From Escherichia virus TH58, in sequence record MT446423.1: a stretch of DNA of 64,000 nucleotides. One strand, written 5' to 3'. Positions 32,376 through 62,158 of the stretch are shown here, piece by piece. A model generated the notes under the pieces. That model made no database searches. It was given only the letters and a program-made list of their open reading frames with translations, and had not been told where the DNA came from. Both the position numbers and the translations under genes were made by a program. Position 1 is the stretch's first letter, and each line of letters opens with the position of its first letter.

Positions 32376-32383
32376 TATAAATA
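32376..32383 (+). promoter_or_regulatory. late promoter TATAAATA for gene 4
   Basis: Plus-strand TATAAATA 27 nt upstream of gene 4 ATG. Confidence 0.55.
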
Positions 32384-32390
32384 ATAATAC

Positions 32391-32398
32391 TATTTATA
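32391..32398 (-). promoter_or_regulatory. late promoter TATAAATA for gene 53 (divergent)
   Basis: Minus-strand TATAAATA upstream of gp53 ATG, in the 53/4 divergent intergenic region. Confidence 0.5.
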
Positions 32399-32409
32399 AG
32401 GAGGACAAC

Positions 32410-32859
32410 ATGGCCTACTCTGGTAAATGGGTCCCGAAAAATTTAAAAAAATACCGTGGAGACCATACCAAAATAACGTATCGTTCAAACTGGGAAAAAT
32501 TCTTTTTCGAATGGTTGGATAAAAATCCGGAAATTATTGCATGGGGTAGTGAAACAGCAGTAATTCCATATTTTTGTAATGCTGAAGGTAAGAAACGTCG
32601 ATACTATATGGACGTATGGATGAAAGATGCATCAGGTCAAGAGTTCTTTGTAGAAATAAAACCAAAGAAAGAAACTCAACCGCCTATTAAGCCTGCAAAT
32701 CTTACTACCGCAGCAAAGAAACGTTATATGAATGAAATATACACCTGGTCTGTGAACTGCGACAAATGGAAAGCTGCTTCTGCTGTCGCAGAAAAGAGAA
32801 ATATAAAATTTCGAGTTCTAACCGAAGACGGACTTAGGAAACTCGGATACAAGGGGTAA
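32410..32859 (+). CDS. 4: head completion protein gp4
   Basis: 149 aa; N-terminus [18 protein letters not shown] as T4 gp4. Confidence 0.85.
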
Positions 32860-35861: not shown

Positions 35862-35891
35862 GTTTACATAAGGATGATGGTGTGTTACTAT
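35862..35891 (+). promoter_or_regulatory. early promoter cassette with inverted repeat (GGATGAT / ATCATCC)
   Basis: GTTTAC 35862-35867, TGTTACTAT 35883-35891; arms flank the -10. Confidence 0.5.
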
Positions 35892-35926
35892 CATCCTATC
35901 AAATAAACAACCAAATGGAACCTAAA

Positions 35927-37695: not shown

Positions 37696-37769
37696 GGCCC
37701 TGTAGCTCAATGGTTAGCAGCAGTCCCCTCATAAGGGAAAGGTTACCAGTTCGAATCTGGTCTGGGCCA
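37696..37769 (+). tRNA. tRNA with anticodon CAU (Met or Ile2)
   Basis: Acceptor GGCCCTG/CTGGGCC, T-arm ACCAG-TTCGAAT-CTGGT, anticodon loop CTCATAA; no encoded CCA; D-arm non-canonical. Confidence 0.6.
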
Positions 37770-37775
37770 TATATT

Positions 37776-37852
<77 letters not shown>

Positions 37853-38522: not shown

Positions 38523-38554
38523 GCCCCTTCCGAAAGGTTGGGGCTTTTTTTTTT
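38523..38554 (+). terminator. intrinsic terminator GCCCCTTCC-GAAA-GGTTGGGGC plus T10
   Basis: GNRA-loop hairpin followed by a 10-nt T-run; one of four near-identical copies. Confidence 0.75.
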
Positions 38555-42805: not shown

Positions 42806-42836
42806 GTTTACAACAAGATAGGGCTATGTTATAGTA
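42806..42836 (+). promoter_or_regulatory. early promoter cassette (GTTTAC ... TGTTATAGTA) with inverted repeat
   Basis: GATAGGGCT / AGTCCTATC arms around the -10. Confidence 0.5.
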
Positions 42837-42863
42837 GTCCTATCAAATTAAATGGAGTCCACA

Positions 42864-44100: not shown

Positions 44101-44131
44101 GTTTACAACATGATAGGACTATGTTATAGTA
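44101..44131 (+). promoter_or_regulatory. early promoter cassette (GTTTAC ... TGTTATAGTA) with inverted repeat
   Basis: ATAGGACT / AGTCCTAT arms around the -10. Confidence 0.5.
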
Positions 44132-44158
44132 GTCCTATTAAAACATGAGGAGAATATT

Positions 44159-45864: not shown

Positions 45865-46312
45865 GAAAAATAAAGTGAAAGAACTATCAGCCGGTATTAT
45901 TTTCCTTACCGAAGATAAAGAATTATTCATGGGGCGTGTAACTGGTTCTCGTCCTAAAGGTTCTTTAGCTCATCGGTGGGATATTCCTAAAGGTCATGTC
46001 GAGCCCGGCGAATCTCCTATTGAAGCCGCTATTCGTGAATGCGAAGAAGAAACTGGGTTTACACAATATGACCCTGCCTTCCTGAAAGACCTAGGTGAAC
46101 ATCGTTACTCAGACAATAAGAATATTCATCTGTTCCTATATACCATCCCTGTAGAGCACGAGCAATTCAGAAACAGTGTTTGTAATTCCTATCATACGTT
46201 CCCAGATGGTCGACAGATTCCTGAATTTGATGCATTCGCTTTAATTAAACCTTCTCAATGGGAATATGTAATGGGCAAATCATTATATAAGGTGCTCACT
46301 ACCATCCTATAA
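45854..46312 (+). CDS. nudE: Nudix hydrolase
   Basis: Nudix box GHVEPGESPIEAAIRECEEETGF; directly upstream of lysozyme e as T4 nudE. Confidence 0.8.
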   Translation: MMSKKNKVKELSAGIIFLTEDKELFMGRVTGSRPKGSLAHRWDIPKGHVEPGESPIEAAIRECEEETGFTQYDPAFLKDLGEHRYSDNKNIHLFLYTIPVEHEQFRNSVCNSYHTFPDGRQIPEFDAFALIKPSQWEYVMGKSLYKVLTTIL

Positions 46313-46320
46313 GTAATAAA

Positions 46321-46344
46321 TACCTCCTATAAACGTGGGAGGTA
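46321..46344 (+). promoter_or_regulatory. RBS-sequestering hairpin (TACCTCC / GGAGGTA) upstream of e, with TATAAA in loop
   Basis: 7-bp inverted repeat whose 3' arm contains the GGGAGG Shine-Dalgarno of e. Confidence 0.5.
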
Positions 46345-46346
46345 TT

Positions 46347-46835
46347 ATGAATATATTTGAAATGCTTCGTAATGACGAAGGTCTTAGACTGTCTTTATAC
46401 AAAGACACTGAAGGCTTTTGGACGATTGGCATAGGTCATTTAGTAACAAAGAACCCGTCTTTAGCCGTAGCTAAAGCTGAACTTGACAGAATGATCGGAC
46501 GTAAATGCAATGGTACAATTACCCTTGATGAGGCTGAAAAGCTATTTAATGAAGACGTTGATAAAGCCGTTCGCGGAATCTTGGGTAATGCTAAACTTAA
46601 ACCGGTATATGATTCTTTAGATGCAGTTCGTCGATGTGCATTGGTCAATATGGTCTTCCAAATGGGTGTAGCAGGCGTCGCTGGTTTTACTAATTCTCTT
46701 CGTATGCTTCAACAGAAACGTTGGGACGAAGCGGCAGTAAATCTAGCCCAATCTAAATGGTATCGTCAGACACCTAATCGCGCGAAACGCGTAATCTCAA
46801 CATTTAAAACAGGAACTTGGAAAGCGTATATATGA
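46347..46835 (+). CDS. e: endolysin (T4 lysozyme)
   Basis: N-terminus [32 protein letters not shown] matches T4 lysozyme; 162 aa. Confidence 0.9.
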
Positions 46836-47114: not shown

Positions 47115-47145
47115 GTTTACTTCCTCCAAGGACTTTGATACTATA
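47115..47145 (+). promoter_or_regulatory. early promoter cassette with inverted repeat masking the denV RBS
   Basis: GTTTAC 47115-47120, TGATACTATA 47136-47145; TCCTCCAAG (47122-47130) pairs with CTTGGAGGA (47159-47167). Confidence 0.5.
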
Positions 47146-47171
47146 CATTCATCAACTACTTGGAGGAAATT

Positions 47172-47585
47172 ATGACTCGTATCAATTTAACACTTGTTTC
47201 TGAACTGTCCGACCAACATCTTATGGCTGAGTATCGTGAATTACCACGCGTATTTGGTGCAGTCCGTAAACATGTTCAAAACGGTAAATGTGTAAAGGAT
47301 TTTAAAATCTCCCCGACATTTATCTTAGGCACAGGTCATGTAACATTCTTTTACGACAAACTCGAATTTTTACGTTTACGTCAAATCGAGCTAATCGCTG
47401 AATGCTTGAAACGTGGTTTCAAAATCAAGGACACGACTGTCCAAGATATTTCCGACATCCCTGCCGAATTTCGTAATAATTATGTCCCGACCGAAGCGTC
47501 CATTGCGATAAGTCAAGCTCGTTTAGATGAAAAAATTGCTCAACGTCCTACTTGGTACAAATACTATGGTAAATCAATTTACTAA
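47172..47585 (+). CDS. denV: endonuclease V (pyrimidine-dimer DNA glycosylase)
   Basis: N-terminus [31 protein letters not shown] and C-terminus [14 protein letters not shown] as T4 DenV. Confidence 0.9.
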
Positions 47586-50191: not shown

Positions 50192-50447
50192 AGATATTAA
50201 AGGTTACAAACCGCTCACCGATGACAAAATCGGCAAAGTGAACGCTATTAAAGATGCAGAAGTCCGTCTTGGATTGATGTTTGATGCTCTGATTGAAGAA
50301 GCATATATCTTGAAAGAAAATGAATCAGAGCAACAAACCAAAGAAGATATGGATGCAGTGCAGGCTCTTAAGTATGCTAAGCAACATCTAAAAGAAGCCA
50401 GTATGTGGGCATGTCGTGCAGTATTTCGACCTGAGGAAAAATACTAA
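50184..50447 (+). CDS. small helical protein at T4 vs.4 position (candidate Acb2-type cyclic-nucleotide sponge)
   Basis: 87 aa from ATG 50184 with GAGGAA RBS; assignment by synteny only. Confidence 0.4.
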   Translation, partial: SIEDIKGYKPLTDDKIGKVNAIKDAEVRLGLMFDALIEEAYILKENESEQQTKEDMDAVQALKYAKQHLKEASMWACRAVFRPEEKY

Positions 50448-50662
50448 TGGCTTCTACTATTACTGGGTTATTGGACTTTCAAGAAAAGGTCAACAAAATT
50501 TGTAGTGAATACTTAAAGTATCTTGAAGAAGACCTTGAAGATTGTAAGGAAGAAGGCGAAGAAGACTATGCTGACCAGCGTCGTCGCCAAATCGAAGAGA
50601 TGAGGCATTTCACCGATATAGTATCTAAAGAATCTTGGGCTTTAACTCCATTTTATCAATAA
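50447..50662 (+). CDS. hypothetical acidic protein (vs.3 position)
   Basis: 71-aa ORF. Confidence 0.4.
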   Translation: MASTITGLLDFQEKVNKICSEYLKYLEEDLEDCKEEGEEDYADQRRRQIEEMRHFTDIVSKESWALTPFYQ

Positions 50663-50666
50663 AGTA

Positions 50667-50696
50667 GTTTACTTCTCCTCTAGTTGTGTTACTATA
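50667..50696 (+). promoter_or_regulatory. early promoter cassette inside a 12-bp perfect inverted repeat that sequesters the regB RBS
   Basis: GTTTAC 50667-50672, TGTTACTATA 50687-50696; CTCCTCTAGTTG (50675-50686) pairs with CAACTAGAGGAG (50704-50715). Confidence 0.55.
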
Positions 50697-50723
50697 GAAC
50701 TGTCAACTAGAGGAGAAATCAAA

Positions 50724-51182
50724 ATGACTATCAATTCAGACGTTTTTATCCGCCGTAATAAACTCCGTCGAATCTTTGAAACGGAGTTCCGCAAAATAAA
50801 TGCCGGTATAAAAGATGCTGCAAAGTCTCTTGGACTACCAGGCTTTCATATCAAGTATTCTCAACATCTCTTAGATCGTGCCATCCAGAGAGAAATAGAT
50901 GAGAACTACGTTTTTGAATTATTTCATAAAGTAAAAAATCATGTTAAAGAAGTTGCAGAATTTTTATCAATGCCGGCACGTCCGGATGTTGATGAAGATT
51001 TTGACGAAGGTGTCGAATATCGCCCAGGCCGTTTAGAAATAACTGATGGAAATCTTTGGTTAGGACTTACAGTTTGTCGCGAAAATCCGGCATTCAAAAT
51101 GAAGACTCTTCAATGCAGAATGGCTATTATTAACAGTAAACGATTACCAGGAAAAGCTTCTAAAGCAGTGATTAAAATCTAG
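50724..51182 (+). CDS. regB: RegB endoribonuclease
   Basis: 152 aa; N-terminus MTINSDVFIRRNKLRR; size and position between vs genes as T4 RegB. Confidence 0.7.
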   Translation: MTINSDVFIRRNKLRRIFETEFRKINAGIKDAAKSLGLPGFHIKYSQHLLDRAIQREIDENYVFELFHKVKNHVKEVAEFLSMPARPDVDEDFDEGVEYRPGRLEITDGNLWLGLTVCRENPAFKMKTLQCRMAIINSKRLPGKASKAVIKI

Positions 51183-54259: not shown

Positions 54260-54287
54260 GCCCCTTCCGAAAGGTTGGGGCTTTTTG
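54260..54287 (+). terminator. intrinsic terminator GCCCCTTCC-GAAA-GGTTGGGGC plus T-run
   Basis: Copy 3 of the repeated terminator, directly after rI. Confidence 0.7.
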
Positions 54288-54295
54288 TATAAATA
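54288..54295 (+). promoter_or_regulatory. late promoter TATAAATA
   Basis: Perfect TATAAATA 25 nt upstream of ORF 54320. Confidence 0.5.
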
Positions 54296-54319
54296 TCCTT
54301 GTAAACTAAGAGAGGATAT

Positions 54320-54877
54320 ATGAAATTTTTAAAATATGTAAGTTGGGTTGTTCTTGTTCCTATAGATTGGATCGCAGCGATTTTAGCAATTATTCTAGCG
54401 CCATTTGTAGTTCCATTCCATAGTGAAAAAACCGGTAAACTACCTTATGGCTTTAACTGGATGATGACTTACGATAATCCTATCGATGGTGACCGCGGCC
54501 ATGTTGAACGTTGGTCTAAAATACGTAAAATTCCTGTTATAGGTAAATATGCTCAACGCGTAGCTTGGCTATGGCGCAACAAAGCATATAATTTTTCGTA
54601 TCATGTTTTAGGTCGCGAAGCTTCATCAGAATGGCATTATAAAGGCAACGCCGAAACTAAATCTGGATCTCCTGATCCAGCACATCATGGATATCTTTTA
54701 GTTTGGAACGAGTCGGCATGGGGATTATTCGCTGCTATACCTTATCTTAAGGTTGGTGGTATTACATTTTATCTGCGTGTTTACTGTGGTTGGAAACTTA
54801 AGAGTCTTTTGAGTCGTCCTATTCCACGCGCAATGCTTTCATTCCATATCAACCCTTTACGATATTACAAAAACTAA
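54320..54877 (+). CDS. membrane protein
   Basis: 185 aa with N-terminal TM helix, Trp/Tyr-rich; late promoter upstream. Confidence 0.45.
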   Translation: MKFLKYVSWVVLVPIDWIAAILAIILAPFVVPFHSEKTGKLPYGFNWMMTYDNPIDGDRGHVERWSKIRKIPVIGKYAQRVAWLWRNKAYNFSYHVLGREASSEWHYKGNAETKSGSPDPAHHGYLLVWNESAWGLFAAIPYLKVGGITFYLRVYCGWKLKSLLSRPIPRAMLSFHINPLRYYKN

Positions 54878-54882
54878 TCAAA

Positions 54883-54910
54883 GCCCCTTCCGAAAGGTTG
54901 GGGCTTTTTG
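54883..54910 (+). terminator. intrinsic terminator GCCCCTTCC-GAAA-GGTTGGGGC plus T-run
   Basis: Copy 4 of the repeated terminator. Confidence 0.7.
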
Positions 54911-54920
54911 GCATCTATCA

Positions 54921-54950
54921 GTTTACTTCTCCTCAGGTTGTGTTATAGTA
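54921..54950 (+). promoter_or_regulatory. early promoter cassette (GTTTAC ... TGTTATAGTA) with CTCCTC / GAGGAG inverted repeat
   Basis: 3' arm GAGGAG (54965-54970) is the RBS of ORF 54977. Confidence 0.5.
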
Positions 54951-54976
54951 GTCCTTACTTAATAGAGGAGAATGTT

Positions 54977-55156
54977 ATGACACGTAAAGAAAAAATTTCT
55001 AAGTTAATGTTTTTGATTGAAGAGTATGCTAATGCGGTGTCTGATTGGGAAAATGCTCATGGTTGTGAAGATGGAGACATCGACATTAACAGAGCTATGA
55101 AAAAGATGGCTGAAGCCCACACCGAATTGCAAATGTATGTTAACGAGATTATGTGA
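54977..55156 (+). CDS. small acidic protein
   Basis: 59 aa from MTRKEKISKL. Confidence 0.35.
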   Translation: MTRKEKISKLMFLIEEYANAVSDWENAHGCEDGDIDINRAMKKMAEAHTELQMYVNEIM

Positions 55157-55420: not shown

Positions 55421-55635
55421 TGTTATATGACCCAAGCGGTTGTTCTGAAGATGGTGTGATTGTTCTGGAGCCTGAGCATCCAGTTGGTGATGTATATCGC
55501 ACCGTTGAAGTATGCGAATGTAATTTCGTTGAAGGTAATACTGGCGGAATTTCCATTGAGCAAGATGATGATGTTATTTACCTGGATGCAAGCCAAGTTG
55601 AAGAGCTTTATCAACATTTAAAACACAATCGGTAG
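55420..55635 (+). CDS. small protein (MLYDPSGCSEDGV family)
   Basis: 71 aa; paralog of 55164 ORF. Confidence 0.35.
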   Translation: MLYDPSGCSEDGVIVLEPEHPVGDVYRTVEVCECNFVEGNTGGISIEQDDDVIYLDASQVEELYQHLKHNR

Positions 55636-55665
55636 TTTACGTTTTGGTAGGACTATGATATAGTA
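55635..55665 (+). promoter_or_regulatory. early promoter cassette (GTTTAC ... TGATATAGTA) with GGTAGGACT / AATCCTACC inverted repeat
   Basis: Family member. Confidence 0.5.
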
Positions 55666-55692
55666 ATCCTACCAAAACAAATGGAGAACAAA

Positions 55693-55980: not shown

Positions 55981-56511
55981 ATGAAAACTGTAATTGAAAC
56001 AACCGAGTTGTTTGGTGATTTATGTATCGAAAAACGTGGTTATGTGTATGTTCTAACACAAGAAGATGATGCTGCTACTATTCTTCCTATGGAACTGGAC
56101 AAGATTTTGAAACTCAATCCACCAGGTCATGCATCTGTAATTAACATCGGTGAAGACCTCCAAGTTCGTTTTTATCATGGACTTTATAGTGGGGTTAATA
56201 TCGAAACTGAAGACGAATGTTTTTCTATTAATAATTGGAAAACATTCGTCACTAAGGTGAAAGAATTAATGGAATCTGAAACAGCCAAAAAGGCCAAACT
56301 TCAATGGGCTAAATGCCGTAATGCTTTTATTACAAATCAGGACCGCCCTGACTATACAACAGTCCTAGGCGTTAATCCTTCTTATGAAGATGGTGATGTC
56401 GTAGTTATTCGTCAAATTGATGACCTTCGTCAACATATCATTACATTAGACAAAGATGAAGCAGTTGCTCTTAAAGCTTATCTTGATTCTATTATCCCGA
56501 CTTTGAAATAA
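55981..56511 (+). CDS. hypothetical protein
   Basis: 176 aa from MKTVIETTEL. Confidence 0.45.
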   Translation: MKTVIETTELFGDLCIEKRGYVYVLTQEDDAATILPMELDKILKLNPPGHASVINIGEDLQVRFYHGLYSGVNIETEDECFSINNWKTFVTKVKELMESETAKKAKLQWAKCRNAFITNQDRPDYTTVLGVNPSYEDGDVVVIRQIDDLRQHIITLDKDEAVALKAYLDSIIPTLK

Positions 56512-56994: not shown

Positions 56995-58004
56995 TGAAAA
57001 CAATTGTGAAAACTTATTTTGGTAGCCACCTTTATGGAACGTCTACCCCAGAATCTGACGTCGATTTTAAAGAAATTTATGTCCCTCATGCTCGTGATAT
57101 CTTGACCGGTAACGTTAAAGAACACATGAGCAAGAACACGAATAACACATCTTCTAAGAACACAAAAGACGACGTGGACCATGAGTTGTATAGTCTCAAA
57201 TATTTCTTTAAACTAGCTGCTGAAGGCGAAACCGTTGCTCTGGACATGATTCACACACCGGCTGAAATGGTGGTTAAATCTGATTTACCTGATGTATGGA
57301 AATTTATCCAAGACAATCGTTCACGCTTCTATACAACTAACATGAAAGCCTATTTAGGGTACGTCCGTAAGCAAGCTTCTAAATATGGTGTTAAGGGTTC
57401 TCGTCTGGCTGCTCTGCGTGGTGTACTGGCTATCGTTAACCAGATTCCTGAACAATGGGTTGATTATCAAGAAGGAATCCCTGATAGACTTCGTCGTACT
57501 AAAGTAGAAGATATCAAACACAGACTCCCTGAAAACGAGTTCTGTGAATGGGTATTCCATAACCATGAGAAAACAGGCCCACAAACGTTCTATACTGTTC
57601 TCGGACGTAAGTACCAAACAACGTTATCAATTACAGAGCTCAAGCAATCTCTGAATAAGCTTGATGCTGAATATGGTGAACGTGCTCGTAAGGCAGAAGC
57701 TAACGAAGGTATTGACTGGAAAGCATTGAGTCATGCATGTCGTGGTGGACTTCAACTATTAGAAATTTACAAAACCGGCGACCTGGTTTACCCACTTCAG
57801 GATGCTCCATTTATTCTCGATGTTAAGCTTGGTAAACATACGTTTAAAACTGTACAAGAATTCCTAGAAGATATCGTTGACCAAGTTGAACATGCGTCAG
57901 AACAAGCTGCCAAGAATGGTATGCAGCAAAAAGTAGATATGAGTTTCTGGGATGACTTCCTTGAACAAGTTTACTTAGAAAACCACAATTCGTACTATAA
58001 ATGA
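56991..58004 (+). CDS. Pol-beta superfamily nucleotidyltransferase
   Basis: 337 aa; N-terminal motif YFGSHLYGTSTPESDVDF (GS-x10-DxD). Confidence 0.6.
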   Translation: MMKTIVKTYFGSHLYGTSTPESDVDFKEIYVPHARDILTGNVKEHMSKNTNNTSSKNTKDDVDHELYSLKYFFKLAAEGETVALDMIHTPAEMVVKSDLPDVWKFIQDNRSRFYTTNMKAYLGYVRKQASKYGVKGSRLAALRGVLAIVNQIPEQWVDYQEGIPDRLRRTKVEDIKHRLPENEFCEWVFHNHEKTGPQTFYTVLGRKYQTTLSITELKQSLNKLDAEYGERARKAEANEGIDWKALSHACRGGLQLLEIYKTGDLVYPLQDAPFILDVKLGKHTFKTVQEFLEDIVDQVEHASEQAAKNGMQQKVDMSFWDDFLEQVYLENHNSYYK

Positions 58005-58007
58005 TAA

Positions 58008-58024
58008 GGGCCTTCGGGCCCTTT
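58008..58024 (+). terminator. hairpin GGGCC-TTCG-GGCCC plus TTT
   Basis: Stem-loop directly after the nucleotidyltransferase stop. Confidence 0.5.
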
Positions 58025-58051
58025 AGGGGGTCAAAATATTTTTAAAAAGTA

Positions 58052-58081
58052 GTGTACATGCTTTTAGGATATGTTATTATA
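58052..58081 (+). promoter_or_regulatory. early promoter cassette (GTGTAC ... TGTTATTATA)
   Basis: Family member upstream of the AAA+ gene. Confidence 0.5.
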
Positions 58082-58118
58082 GACCTATCGAAACGAAATG
58101 AGTAAATTGGAGAATAAA

Positions 58119-59527: not shown

Positions 59528-59557
59528 GTTTACAAGGTCTATGGTTATGTTATTATA
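59528..59557 (+). promoter_or_regulatory. early promoter cassette (GTTTAC ... TGTTATTATA)
   Basis: Family member; GGAGG RBS follows. Confidence 0.5.
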
Positions 59558-59583
59558 GACCTATCAACTACTGGAGGTAAAAC

Positions 59584-60112
59584 ATGAACGCTAAAGATAT
59601 TTTCAACCTGGTAAATTATAACGACGGTAAATTTAAATCTGAAGCACAAAGCAAGTTCTTTAACGACGTTGCTTATGGTAACGAGATTACCGTGGACGGA
59701 GGTCAGATTTTCAAATCTCGCTGGAATTGGATTGCTATCATCGATTCAGTTGGAATTGTGGAAGTCTACAAAAACACTAGCAAAAAAACGTACATTATTC
59801 TGGTCTCGTGAAACTAACGAGCAGTACAAAAAGGATAAAGCATCTCGTTTATCCAAAGTAACCCAGGAAGATATCGAGTTTATCAAGAAAGATATCGAGA
59901 TGTACGAAAATTTAATCGCTGAAGACCAGGCAGTACTCGATAAGTTTGATGAAATTAAAGCTTCTCGTGAAATCCCTGACTTCATGAAAGAAACAGTAAA
60001 CGAACGATACGCTCTCACTTCAGAACGTATTGCAAACTATACAAAACAGAAAGCAGAACGTATTAGTACTCTTCGGAAATTTGAAGAACGTTTAAAGACG
60101 GTTCACGCATAA
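59584..60112 (+). pseudogene. early ORF split between two frames at an A7 tract
   Basis: Frame 1 (59584-59811) has the RBS and start; frame 2 is open from 59669 to 60112 without its own RBS; A7 at 59782-59788. Confidence 0.4.
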
Positions 60113-61225: not shown

Positions 61226-62158
61226 ATGGCTTCTATTACACGTAGAGAACTTATCAAAGAATTTACCTCGAACGCATATACCCCAGGTCCTAATCCTATC
61301 CGTATGCCTGTAAAGACTCCTGAAGAGATTGAGGAAGTCTGTTCATATTATGGGATTACTTCTCGTAAGTTTACTCAATTTGAATGCGTTACTAACACAC
61401 CCGTTAAAGAGTTCATTAAAAATGGTGAGTTCAGCCGTTTATTAGCCAAACAGAAACTTCGTAATTTTTGTATCGGCGGCTACGGACAATATTTTGCTAA
61501 ACAGTTCAGAAATAACCTTAACAATCTGATGGCCATTGCTTCTCGTATTCGTCCTCAAGCAATTAACATGAAACATTTGAAATATACTTACGATAAGTTA
61601 GAAATCATGGTTATCAGTGAGAATGAGTTCACTCTTACGTATAAACCTAAGAATGATAACGTTGCTCGTGTATTCCACCAAGCGTTGGAAGTTTTAGGTG
61701 ATAATATCCACCAGATTAAAGCAATTTATTCTCGTGAGCTTAATATTATCGACCCTATCAAGAATAAGGGCCATATCGCTATCCAGGCTCGTGTATCTGT
61801 TGGTAAAAAGGTTCCTGCTCCATGGTGGCACAAAGACTCTGAATACTATCAAAATCTTAAAAAGGAAAATGCAACGTTCGAAGCGTCAATTATTGTTGCC
61901 CCAACTATCGGTAAGATTAATGCAGCTTCAGCACAACCTGTTATGTTTAATGGCACGCCGTCGACTAAACTGGAAATCTCTAATGGTCTTCTTCCTGCCG
62001 AAGATTACTATTATAATCAAATCAAAGCCACTGTGGACCAACTGTCTGTTGAACTTGACAAAGCACAAGCTAAACTTCGTGATGCTCAACAAGTAGTTAC
62101 CAAGCTCCAGTTGCAGTACTCTAAACTTTTTACCGCAATGAATGCGTTAAAATCATAA
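61226..62158 (+). CDS. hypothetical protein with C-terminal coiled coil
   Basis: 310-aa ORF. Confidence 0.45.
   Translation: MASITRRELIKEFTSNAYTPGPNPIRMPVKTPEEIEEVCSYYGITSRKFTQFECVTNTPVKEFIKNGEFSRLLAKQKLRNFCIGGYGQYFAKQFRNNLNNLMAIASRIRPQAINMKHLKYTYDKLEIMVISENEFTLTYKPKNDNVARVFHQALEVLGDNIHQIKAIYSRELNIIDPIKNKGHIAIQARVSVGKKVPAPWWHKDSEYYQNLKKENATFEASIIVAPTIGKINAASAQPVMFNGTPSTKLEISNGLLPAEDYYYNQIKATVDQLSVELDKAQAKLRDAQQVVTKLQLQYSKLFTAMNALKS

Follow-up and report, generated by a model that had tools for sequence, protein, structure and literature searches.

In phage T4, promoter-embedded hairpins at the translation start have been proven for e (~100-fold repression), soc, 49 and I-TevI, and the class also includes mobE of Aeh1 and segB, with products that are mostly nucleases or lysozyme (PMC3014915). 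As at the locus described here, the Shine-Dalgarno (SD) and/or the AUG of e, soc, 49 and I-TevI lies within a helix whose 5' strand exists only in transcripts begun upstream, and a promoter located inside the structure produces a shorter, translatable RNA (at regB, this start is a predicted one). A second group of related elements, the promoter-early stem-loop (PeSL) cassettes of RB49 and phi1, has analogous elements at the internal-protein loci of T-even phages (PMC2839356). The PeSL stems, which are G/C-rich and can lie between the -35 and -10 elements or over the -10, were described as terminators or attenuators and were drawn apart from the SD, and the cassettes occur at recombination junctions; translational occlusion was not proposed, and the word 'translation' is absent from that paper (PMC2839356).

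The gene that concerns us, regB, has a regulation of its own. Its SD, GGAG, is cut efficiently by the RegB endoribonuclease in T4, and the same is reported, in vivo, for each relative tested (PMC3014915); the enzyme requires its RNA to be single-stranded, and secondary structure readily inhibits it (PMC1702504). The original prediction for TH58 named this GGAG as a RegB target set up for autoregulation, which is published for T4 and the tested relatives (PMC3014915) and hence not new; it omitted the need for single-stranded RNA, by which the hairpin should shield the site from RegB.

The window, a 64-kb stretch of DNA from Escherichia virus TH58, belongs to a Mosigvirus (RB69-like, T4-type); APCEc01, RB69 and many others match the region with 97-99% identity. 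The genes occur in the order e, denV, vs.8 to vs.4, a small ORF, regB, vs.1 and vs. The regB ORF gives a full-length match to PF10715 (232 bits; gathering cut-off 27) and its product shares 77% identity with T4 RegB. A gap of 61 nt, aataaagtaGTTTACttctcctctagttgTGtTACTATagaactgtcaactagaGGAGaaatcaaaATG, separates it from the ORF upstream, and the elements of the locus are as follows:

50447-50662, + strand: upstream ORF, 71 aa, homologue of RB69ORF117c, without a Pfam match
50667-50672, + strand: -35 hexamer, GTTTAC, assigned by the T4 early consensus to an early promoter of the T4 type
50673-50686, + strand: 5' arm of the hairpin, UUCUCCUCUAGUUG, the whole arm inside the 17-nt promoter spacer
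50687-50703, + strand: loop, with the extended -10 TGtTACTAT (50687-50695) and the predicted start at ~G50702
50704-50717, + strand: 3' arm, CAACUAGAGGAGAA, with the Shine-Dalgarno GAGGAG (50710-50715) and the RegB target GGAG (50712-50715)
50724-51182, + strand: regB coding sequence, 152 aa plus stop, Pfam PF10715 REGB_T4 (E 2.8e-69)

The promoter at 50667-50695 combines GTTTAC, a 17-nt spacer, a TGn-extended TAnnnT -10 (hexamer TACTAT, 50690-50695) and A-rich sequence upstream, and fits the T4 early type (consensus from PMC1524935 and PMC2988021). It was recognized through that consensus; a generic sigma-70 scan did not list it (8/12 matches to TTGACA/TATAAT), and the T4 GenBank record carries no annotated promoter features. 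Transcription is predicted to start at ~G50702 from the spacing of ~7 nt past TACTAT. The late-promoter motif TATAAATA is absent from 50600-50724; the promoter embedded at regB is of the early type. The 5' arm of the hairpin is the promoter spacer, and the 3' arm forms the beginning of the leader, SD included.

The original prediction paired CTCCTCTAGTTG (50675-50686) with CAACTAGAGGAG (50704-50715) and placed the -10 in the loop between them. These coordinates and their complementarity are exact, and TGtTACTAT (50687-50695) indeed falls within the 17-nt loop at 50687-50703. The pairing is perfect, as had been claimed, but it does not stop at 12 bp: two more pairs extend it to a 14-bp perfect inverted repeat (TTCTCCTCTAGTTG, 50673-50686; CAACTAGAGGAGAA, 50704-50717). 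As RNA, this hairpin has a minimum free energy (MFE) of -22.1 kcal/mol (z = -4.2), a stability reached by none of 200 shuffled sequences (0/200). In the whole 64 kb, only 4 loci have a perfect inverted repeat that is 12 bp or longer and encloses a loop of 3-40 nt, and first-order Markov simulations gave an expectation of 0.27 12-mer inverted repeats per sequence; for a 14-bp repeat this becomes ~0.02 by a rough 1/16 rule for the two extra perfect pairs. A chance origin of the repeat was rejected on the basis of these simulations together with the covariation test described below. Rfam holds no family at the hairpin, which gave sub-threshold matches to miRNA-precursor hairpin models only.

Because the -10 and the predicted start G50702 both lie in the loop, RNA made from regB's own promoter would begin inside the structure and lack the 5' arm, as originally proposed. 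All those elements of the original prediction that lend themselves to computation were upheld. Folding both transcript forms in silico showed the difference in SD accessibility that this arrangement implies. When the SD was forced open, the ensemble free energy rose by 15.7-16.2 kcal/mol in the read-through RNA (50560-50800 or 50447-50850) and by 3.0 kcal/mol in RNA beginning at 50702, an opening cost of ~16 versus ~3 kcal/mol in equilibrium folding energies, which exaggerate in vivo effects. If anything, the own-promoter leader has less structure than shuffled controls. The GGAG at 50712-50715, in its leader position, is near-unstructured in the own-promoter RNA and paired in the read-through RNA, and it is thus in the own-promoter RNA that the single-stranded intergenic GGAG of a RegB/S1 site is found. 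The TH58 leader, GGAGAAAUCAA, fits the RegB/S1 consensus GGAGRAYARAA at 8/11 positions and has at position 9 a C, never found in well-cut T4 RNAs (PMC1702504); the T4 leader, GGAGAAUAACA, is closer to this consensus. Within the regB coding sequence we also observed a perfect 8-bp hairpin (AACTCCGT, 50761-50768; ACGGAGTT, 50781-50788) with GGAG in its 3' arm, which may relate to the three weaker internal RegB cuts reported for T4 regB mRNA.

We then compared regB loci from GenBank phages and IMG/VR, comprising 54 loci with 46 distinct upstream regions, sampled from Mosig-, Tequatro-, Gelderland-, Kanagawa-, Dhaka- and Jiaodavirus and from Aeromonas phages. Pairing was counted when the MFE fold joined at least 3/4 SD bases to the promoter spacer, and by this definition it occurs in 39/46 distinct upstream regions: 39/43 of those with the promoter motif and 0/3 of those without it (Krischvirus, PspYZU05). 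In a few regB lineages (loci L030/32/35, L044/45 and L047) the promoter is kept and the hairpin is missing. T4 regB shows the same arrangement (TTTTCCTCTTGACTG / CAGTTAAGAGGAGAA), as do Gelderland-, Kanagawa-, Dhaka- and Jiaodavirus and, weakly, the Aeromonas phages, and the RB69 cassette equals that of TH58 but for one loop base. The distal stem varies by lineage with its pairing kept (CTAGTTG/CAACTAG, TTTTAGT/ACTAAAA, TGTAG/CTACA, ATTTG/CAAAT).

When 12 cassettes were simply aligned with MAFFT, RNAalifold returned no consensus structure. Because the arms lie at shifting offsets, we instead used an ungapped alignment anchored only on CTCC/GGAG, in which 13/16 pairs carry changes on both sides. 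The covariation score in this alignment was 0.341, compared with at most 0.098 when the partners were slid against each other, and was reached by 0/500 shuffles. Sense-strand G·U pairs occur in T4 and KpV477; since such a pair would be a C·A mismatch on the other strand, they indicate RNA rather than duplex DNA. The abundance of compensatory changes, together with these G·U pairs, points to an RNA structure under selection; compensatory evolution has maintained the early-promoter form over a range of hosts that extends from those of coliphages to those of Aeromonas phages.

We consider it fairly probable, taking the two parts jointly, that the inverted repeat encodes an RNA hairpin forming exclusively in RNA initiated 5' of the regB promoter, and that this hairpin insulates regB translationally, the gene being silent and its SD shielded from RegB on read-through RNA, and translated only from its own short-lived early transcript. 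Read-through RNA, which has both arms, would fold into the 14-bp stem once the 3' arm emerges, and the stem would keep ribosomes off the SD and, given the single-strand requirement of RegB, would protect the site from RegB as well. RNA from the embedded promoter, with a start that the spacing places ~2 nt before the 3' arm, would have no 5' arm and a short, open 22-nt leader, and would be translated. If the regB promoter is active in the first minutes of infection only, and RegB then cleaves the exposed GGAG of the short transcript in TH58 too, RegB synthesis would be limited to a brief pulse, whatever later read-through crosses the gene. The first paired base lies 10 nt beyond the stop codon of the upstream ORF (TAA, 50660-50662), such that a terminating ribosome should come up to the base of the stem and not melt it.

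Candidate sources of read-through transcription were identified upstream of regB:

47115, 47617 and 47982: early-promoter motifs, from a motif search
47739: one late-promoter motif

The terminator scan found no convincing + strand terminator between the early promoters at 47115, 47617 and 47982 and regB, and no MotA-type middle promoter was found on the + strand from 37.6 kb to 52.3 kb. Because these upstream promoters are also early-class, the benefit of silencing read-through is unclear unless delayed-early or late read-through is substantial. The homologue of vs.4 in phage Mizar (L058, 46-312) is annotated as the anti-CBASS protein Acb2, and in TH58 it corresponds to the ORF two genes before regB; the read-through RNA that we infer for regB would therefore stem from an anti-defence cluster.

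The similar geometry that had been proposed for denV and for 54929-54970 is real at both sites, with the -10 in the loop in each. Together with a looser fourth case and genes with late-promoter hairpins, these cassettes are:

47115-47174, + strand: denV cassette, with GTTTAC, TACTAT (47139-47144) in the loop and ATG at 47172; -20.3 kcal/mol
47121-47130 and 47159-47168, + strand: denV arms, TTCCTCCAAG (in the spacer) and CTTGGAGGAA
54921-54979, + strand: third cassette, at a 59-aa DUF7438 gene, with TATAGT (54944-54949) in the loop and ATG at 54977
54927-54934 and 54965-54972, + strand: arms of the third cassette, TTCTCCTC and GAGGAGAA
59519-59586, + strand: looser fourth case, at a 75-aa ORF with ATG at 59584; SD pairing P = 0.99
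ATG at 54320 (185 aa) and ATG at 32410 (149 aa): genes with late-promoter SD hairpins

The denV product has the Pfam domain Pyr_excise, and the same arrangement occurs at T4 and RB69 denV. In the fourth case the SD pairs (with three G·U) to bases just 5' of the -35, placing the whole promoter inside the structure. Our scan for SD hairpins, which covered 73 SD+ATG starts, recovered the classic e hairpin (ATG 46347, 46300-46350) with its near match to the late motif TATAAATA, and two further late-promoter SD hairpins (54288-54322 and 32376-32412) in which TATAAATA lies at or in the 5' arm.

Across 16 early promoters of the window, the spacer is complementary to its own downstream 45 nt (mean duplex energy of -10.7 kcal/mol vs -7.9 kcal/mol for mismatched pairs; permutation p < 5e-5). 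The commonest form at early promoters is a hairpin that brackets the -10 only and leaves the SD free (42806, 44101, 55635 and 59528). SD capture is not enriched at early promoters (4/13 promoter-proximal starts vs 9/60 others; Fisher p = 0.23), a result that counts against insulation and on which we gave up the notion of translational gating by early promoters in general. Repeats with the -10 in the loop, resembling those of PeSL and the stem-loop elements at T-even internal-protein loci (PMC2839356), were seen at 35862-35900, 42806-42850, 44101-44145, 55635-55680 and 59528-59570, and the early promoter at 55635-55680 has a 12-bp perfect repeat (55641-55652 / 55667-55678).

Because the spacer hairpins of other early promoters mostly spare the SD, the conserved pairing at regB could serve a non-translational purpose. 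In a reading that we judge rather unlikely, the hairpin mainly governs RNA processing or stability and not translation: with GGAG hidden in the polycistronic read-through RNA, the long message, including the downstream vs.1 and vs, would stay unsevered there, and after cleavage elsewhere the stem-loop at its 3' end may guard the upstream message from exonucleases. RegB's requirement for single-stranded RNA and its ready inhibition by structure (PMC1702504) fit such a role, as do the covering of GGAGAA by the stem and the position of the hairpin 10 nt past the upstream stop codon, and the frequency of SD-sparing spacer hairpins at other early promoters suggests a function independent of the SD. 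However, the SD lies within the stem in nearly every structured lineage, even where the distal stem has been wholly replaced, a pattern that fits SD occlusion, and the leader matches the RegB/S1 consensus at only 8/11 positions. A role in processing or stability is compatible with translational insulation, and computation cannot separate the two.

It is also conceivable, though very unlikely, that the repeat acts as DNA, as a protein-binding palindrome or cruciform modulating the promoter (e.g., in its shut-off), or that it is a by-product of recombination between mobile promoter cassettes, devoid of any role as RNA. The bracketing of the -10 by the repeat would suit an action on the promoter, the shut-off of early promoters being reported as mechanistically not fully understood (PMC3014915). 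The arm sequences vary across promoters and lineages with pairing kept, however, which argues against a shared protein operator, and a sense-strand G·U would be C·A on the opposite strand; a DNA-level operator is thus unlikely. As for recombination, the T4 denV cassette shares 93% identity with the regB cassette of Dhakavirus WG01, against 67% with the T4 regB cassette and 74% with the TH58 denV cassette, which suggests that cassettes have been exchanged between different genes. Moreover, about half of 155 Mosigvirus records align only from ~50656 on and have another gene upstream (e.g., phage Mizar), and this homology breakpoint at ~50656-50663 is the 5' edge of the regB promoter cassette, a pattern resembling PeSL-type shuffling (PMC2839356). 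Such exchange would account for the spread of the cassettes, but not for the compensatory upkeep of their complementarity.

Least probable of the alternatives is a transcription terminator or attenuator insulating regB from upstream transcription, a reading that we rejected because no U tract follows the stem (its tail is AAUCAAAAUG): although the SA79RD record OL960576 labels the corresponding 49 nt a rho-independent terminator (WebGeSTer) and PeSL stem-loops cut lacZ read-through like a strong terminator (PMC2839356), the regB hairpin has a 17-nt loop and a stem that is A+U-rich save for its SD part, unlike the polyG/polyC stems of PeSL terminators (PMC2839356), was not flagged by the terminator scan, and differs from the true terminators in the 64 kb (e.g., GCCCCTTCCGAAAGGTTGGGGC followed by a T run). 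It thus has none of the G/C-rich stem, short loop and U tract of an intrinsic terminator. The feature in OL960576, at 61740-61788 (L056, 377-425), corresponds to TH58 ~50676-50724; given its lack of a U tract, the label is probably a mis-annotation, and our analysis flags this error in at least one GenBank record.

The terminator stem-loop GCCCCTTCCGAAAGGTTGGGGC, of 22 nt, occurs in three identical copies on the + strand (0 expected), at 38523-38544, 54260-54281 and 54883-54904. The copy at 54260 closely precedes a late-promoter motif, TATAAATA (54288-54295), that at 54883 closely precedes the early promoter at 54921, and for the copy at 38523 no following promoter was identified. Elsewhere in the window, an early-promoter motif within 57969-58090 is followed almost directly by a G/C-rich hairpin with a UUCG loop (AAGGGCC-TTCG-GGCCCTT) and then by a second promoter-like site, GTGTAC...TATTAT, an arrangement that could give a very short transcript or an attenuator. 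In addition, the two 19-nt arms of an inverted repeat, separated by 1 nt, occupy 56212-56250 (GACGAATGTTTTTCTATTA / TAATTGGAAAACATTCGTC, 89% complementary), and two tRNA genes lie on the + strand at 37696-37849 (Rfam RF00005, 57 and 71 bits).

A broader generalization, which we offer tentatively and hold to be doubtful, is that T4-type early promoters may as a rule be self-insulating cassettes, in which the spacer co-evolves with the cassette's downstream sequence towards complementarity, with a subset capturing the SD and the cassettes moving as units from gene to gene and from phage to phage. If this were true, read-through RNA would fold at each internal promoter and RNA begun there would not, and for the SD-capturing subset (regB, denV and others, often nucleases) translation would depend on the promoter used. 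Such a rule would amount to a genome-wide, promoter-coupled form of post-transcriptional control, and could explain part of the distinction between immediate-early and delayed-early expression.

Compared with the PeSL cassettes, the regB element shares a strong sigma-70-like early promoter with A/T-rich sequence upstream and an intergenic cassette that ends in SD and ATG; in the 61-nt gap it reads aataaagtaGTTTAC...TGtTACTAT...GAGGAG...ATG. Complementarity of the spacer to downstream sequence is likewise general in TH58, and here too the cassettes appear to have been exchanged between genes. The regB cassette differs in that its 3' arm is the SD, without a terminator-like tail: the G/C-rich terminator stem of PeSL is replaced by UUCUCCUCUAGUUG, with no U tract and no flag in the terminator scan.

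With respect to RegB autoregulation, the regB SD GGAG is the target in both cases, and the RB69 leader is identical to that of TH58. The known mechanism deals with an exposed site only, whereas the hairpin would add a second, promoter-dependent layer, of which we found no description in the accessible literature. In T4-type infections it is RegB that brings the early phase to a close, by cleaving early mRNAs at their ribosome-binding sites, so that its dose and timing matter. If regB is translatable only from its own brief promoter, this would be a second lock beside the known self-cleavage, and the two together would explain a short RegB pulse despite heavy read-through.

The accessible reviews and papers do not mention a hairpin at the regB promoter, although the T4 hairpin may have been noted in the older primary literature; nor does the accessible literature describe the early-promoter form at regB, denV or the gene at 54977. 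The abstract of Valerie et al. (1986) reportedly mentions potential stem-loops before ipIII, ipII, denV and tk.

It is to e, soc, 49 and I-TevI that regB compares most directly. The SD sequestration characteristic of that class is found at regB in a 14-bp stem over GAGGAGAA, of -22.1 kcal/mol and with an opening cost of ~16 kcal/mol. The promoter in those genes is a gp55 late promoter, whereas the motif of that promoter, TATAAATA, is lacking at regB, which has instead an early promoter of the sigma-70 type, GTTTAC-17-TGnTAnnnT, and whose 5' arm is the promoter spacer itself. The consequence would differ accordingly in time: translation of e, soc, 49 and I-TevI is delayed to late times, whereas that of regB would be limited to the immediate-early transcript from its own promoter. 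The hairpin at regB would thus extend a classic T4 device from late to host-type early promoters.
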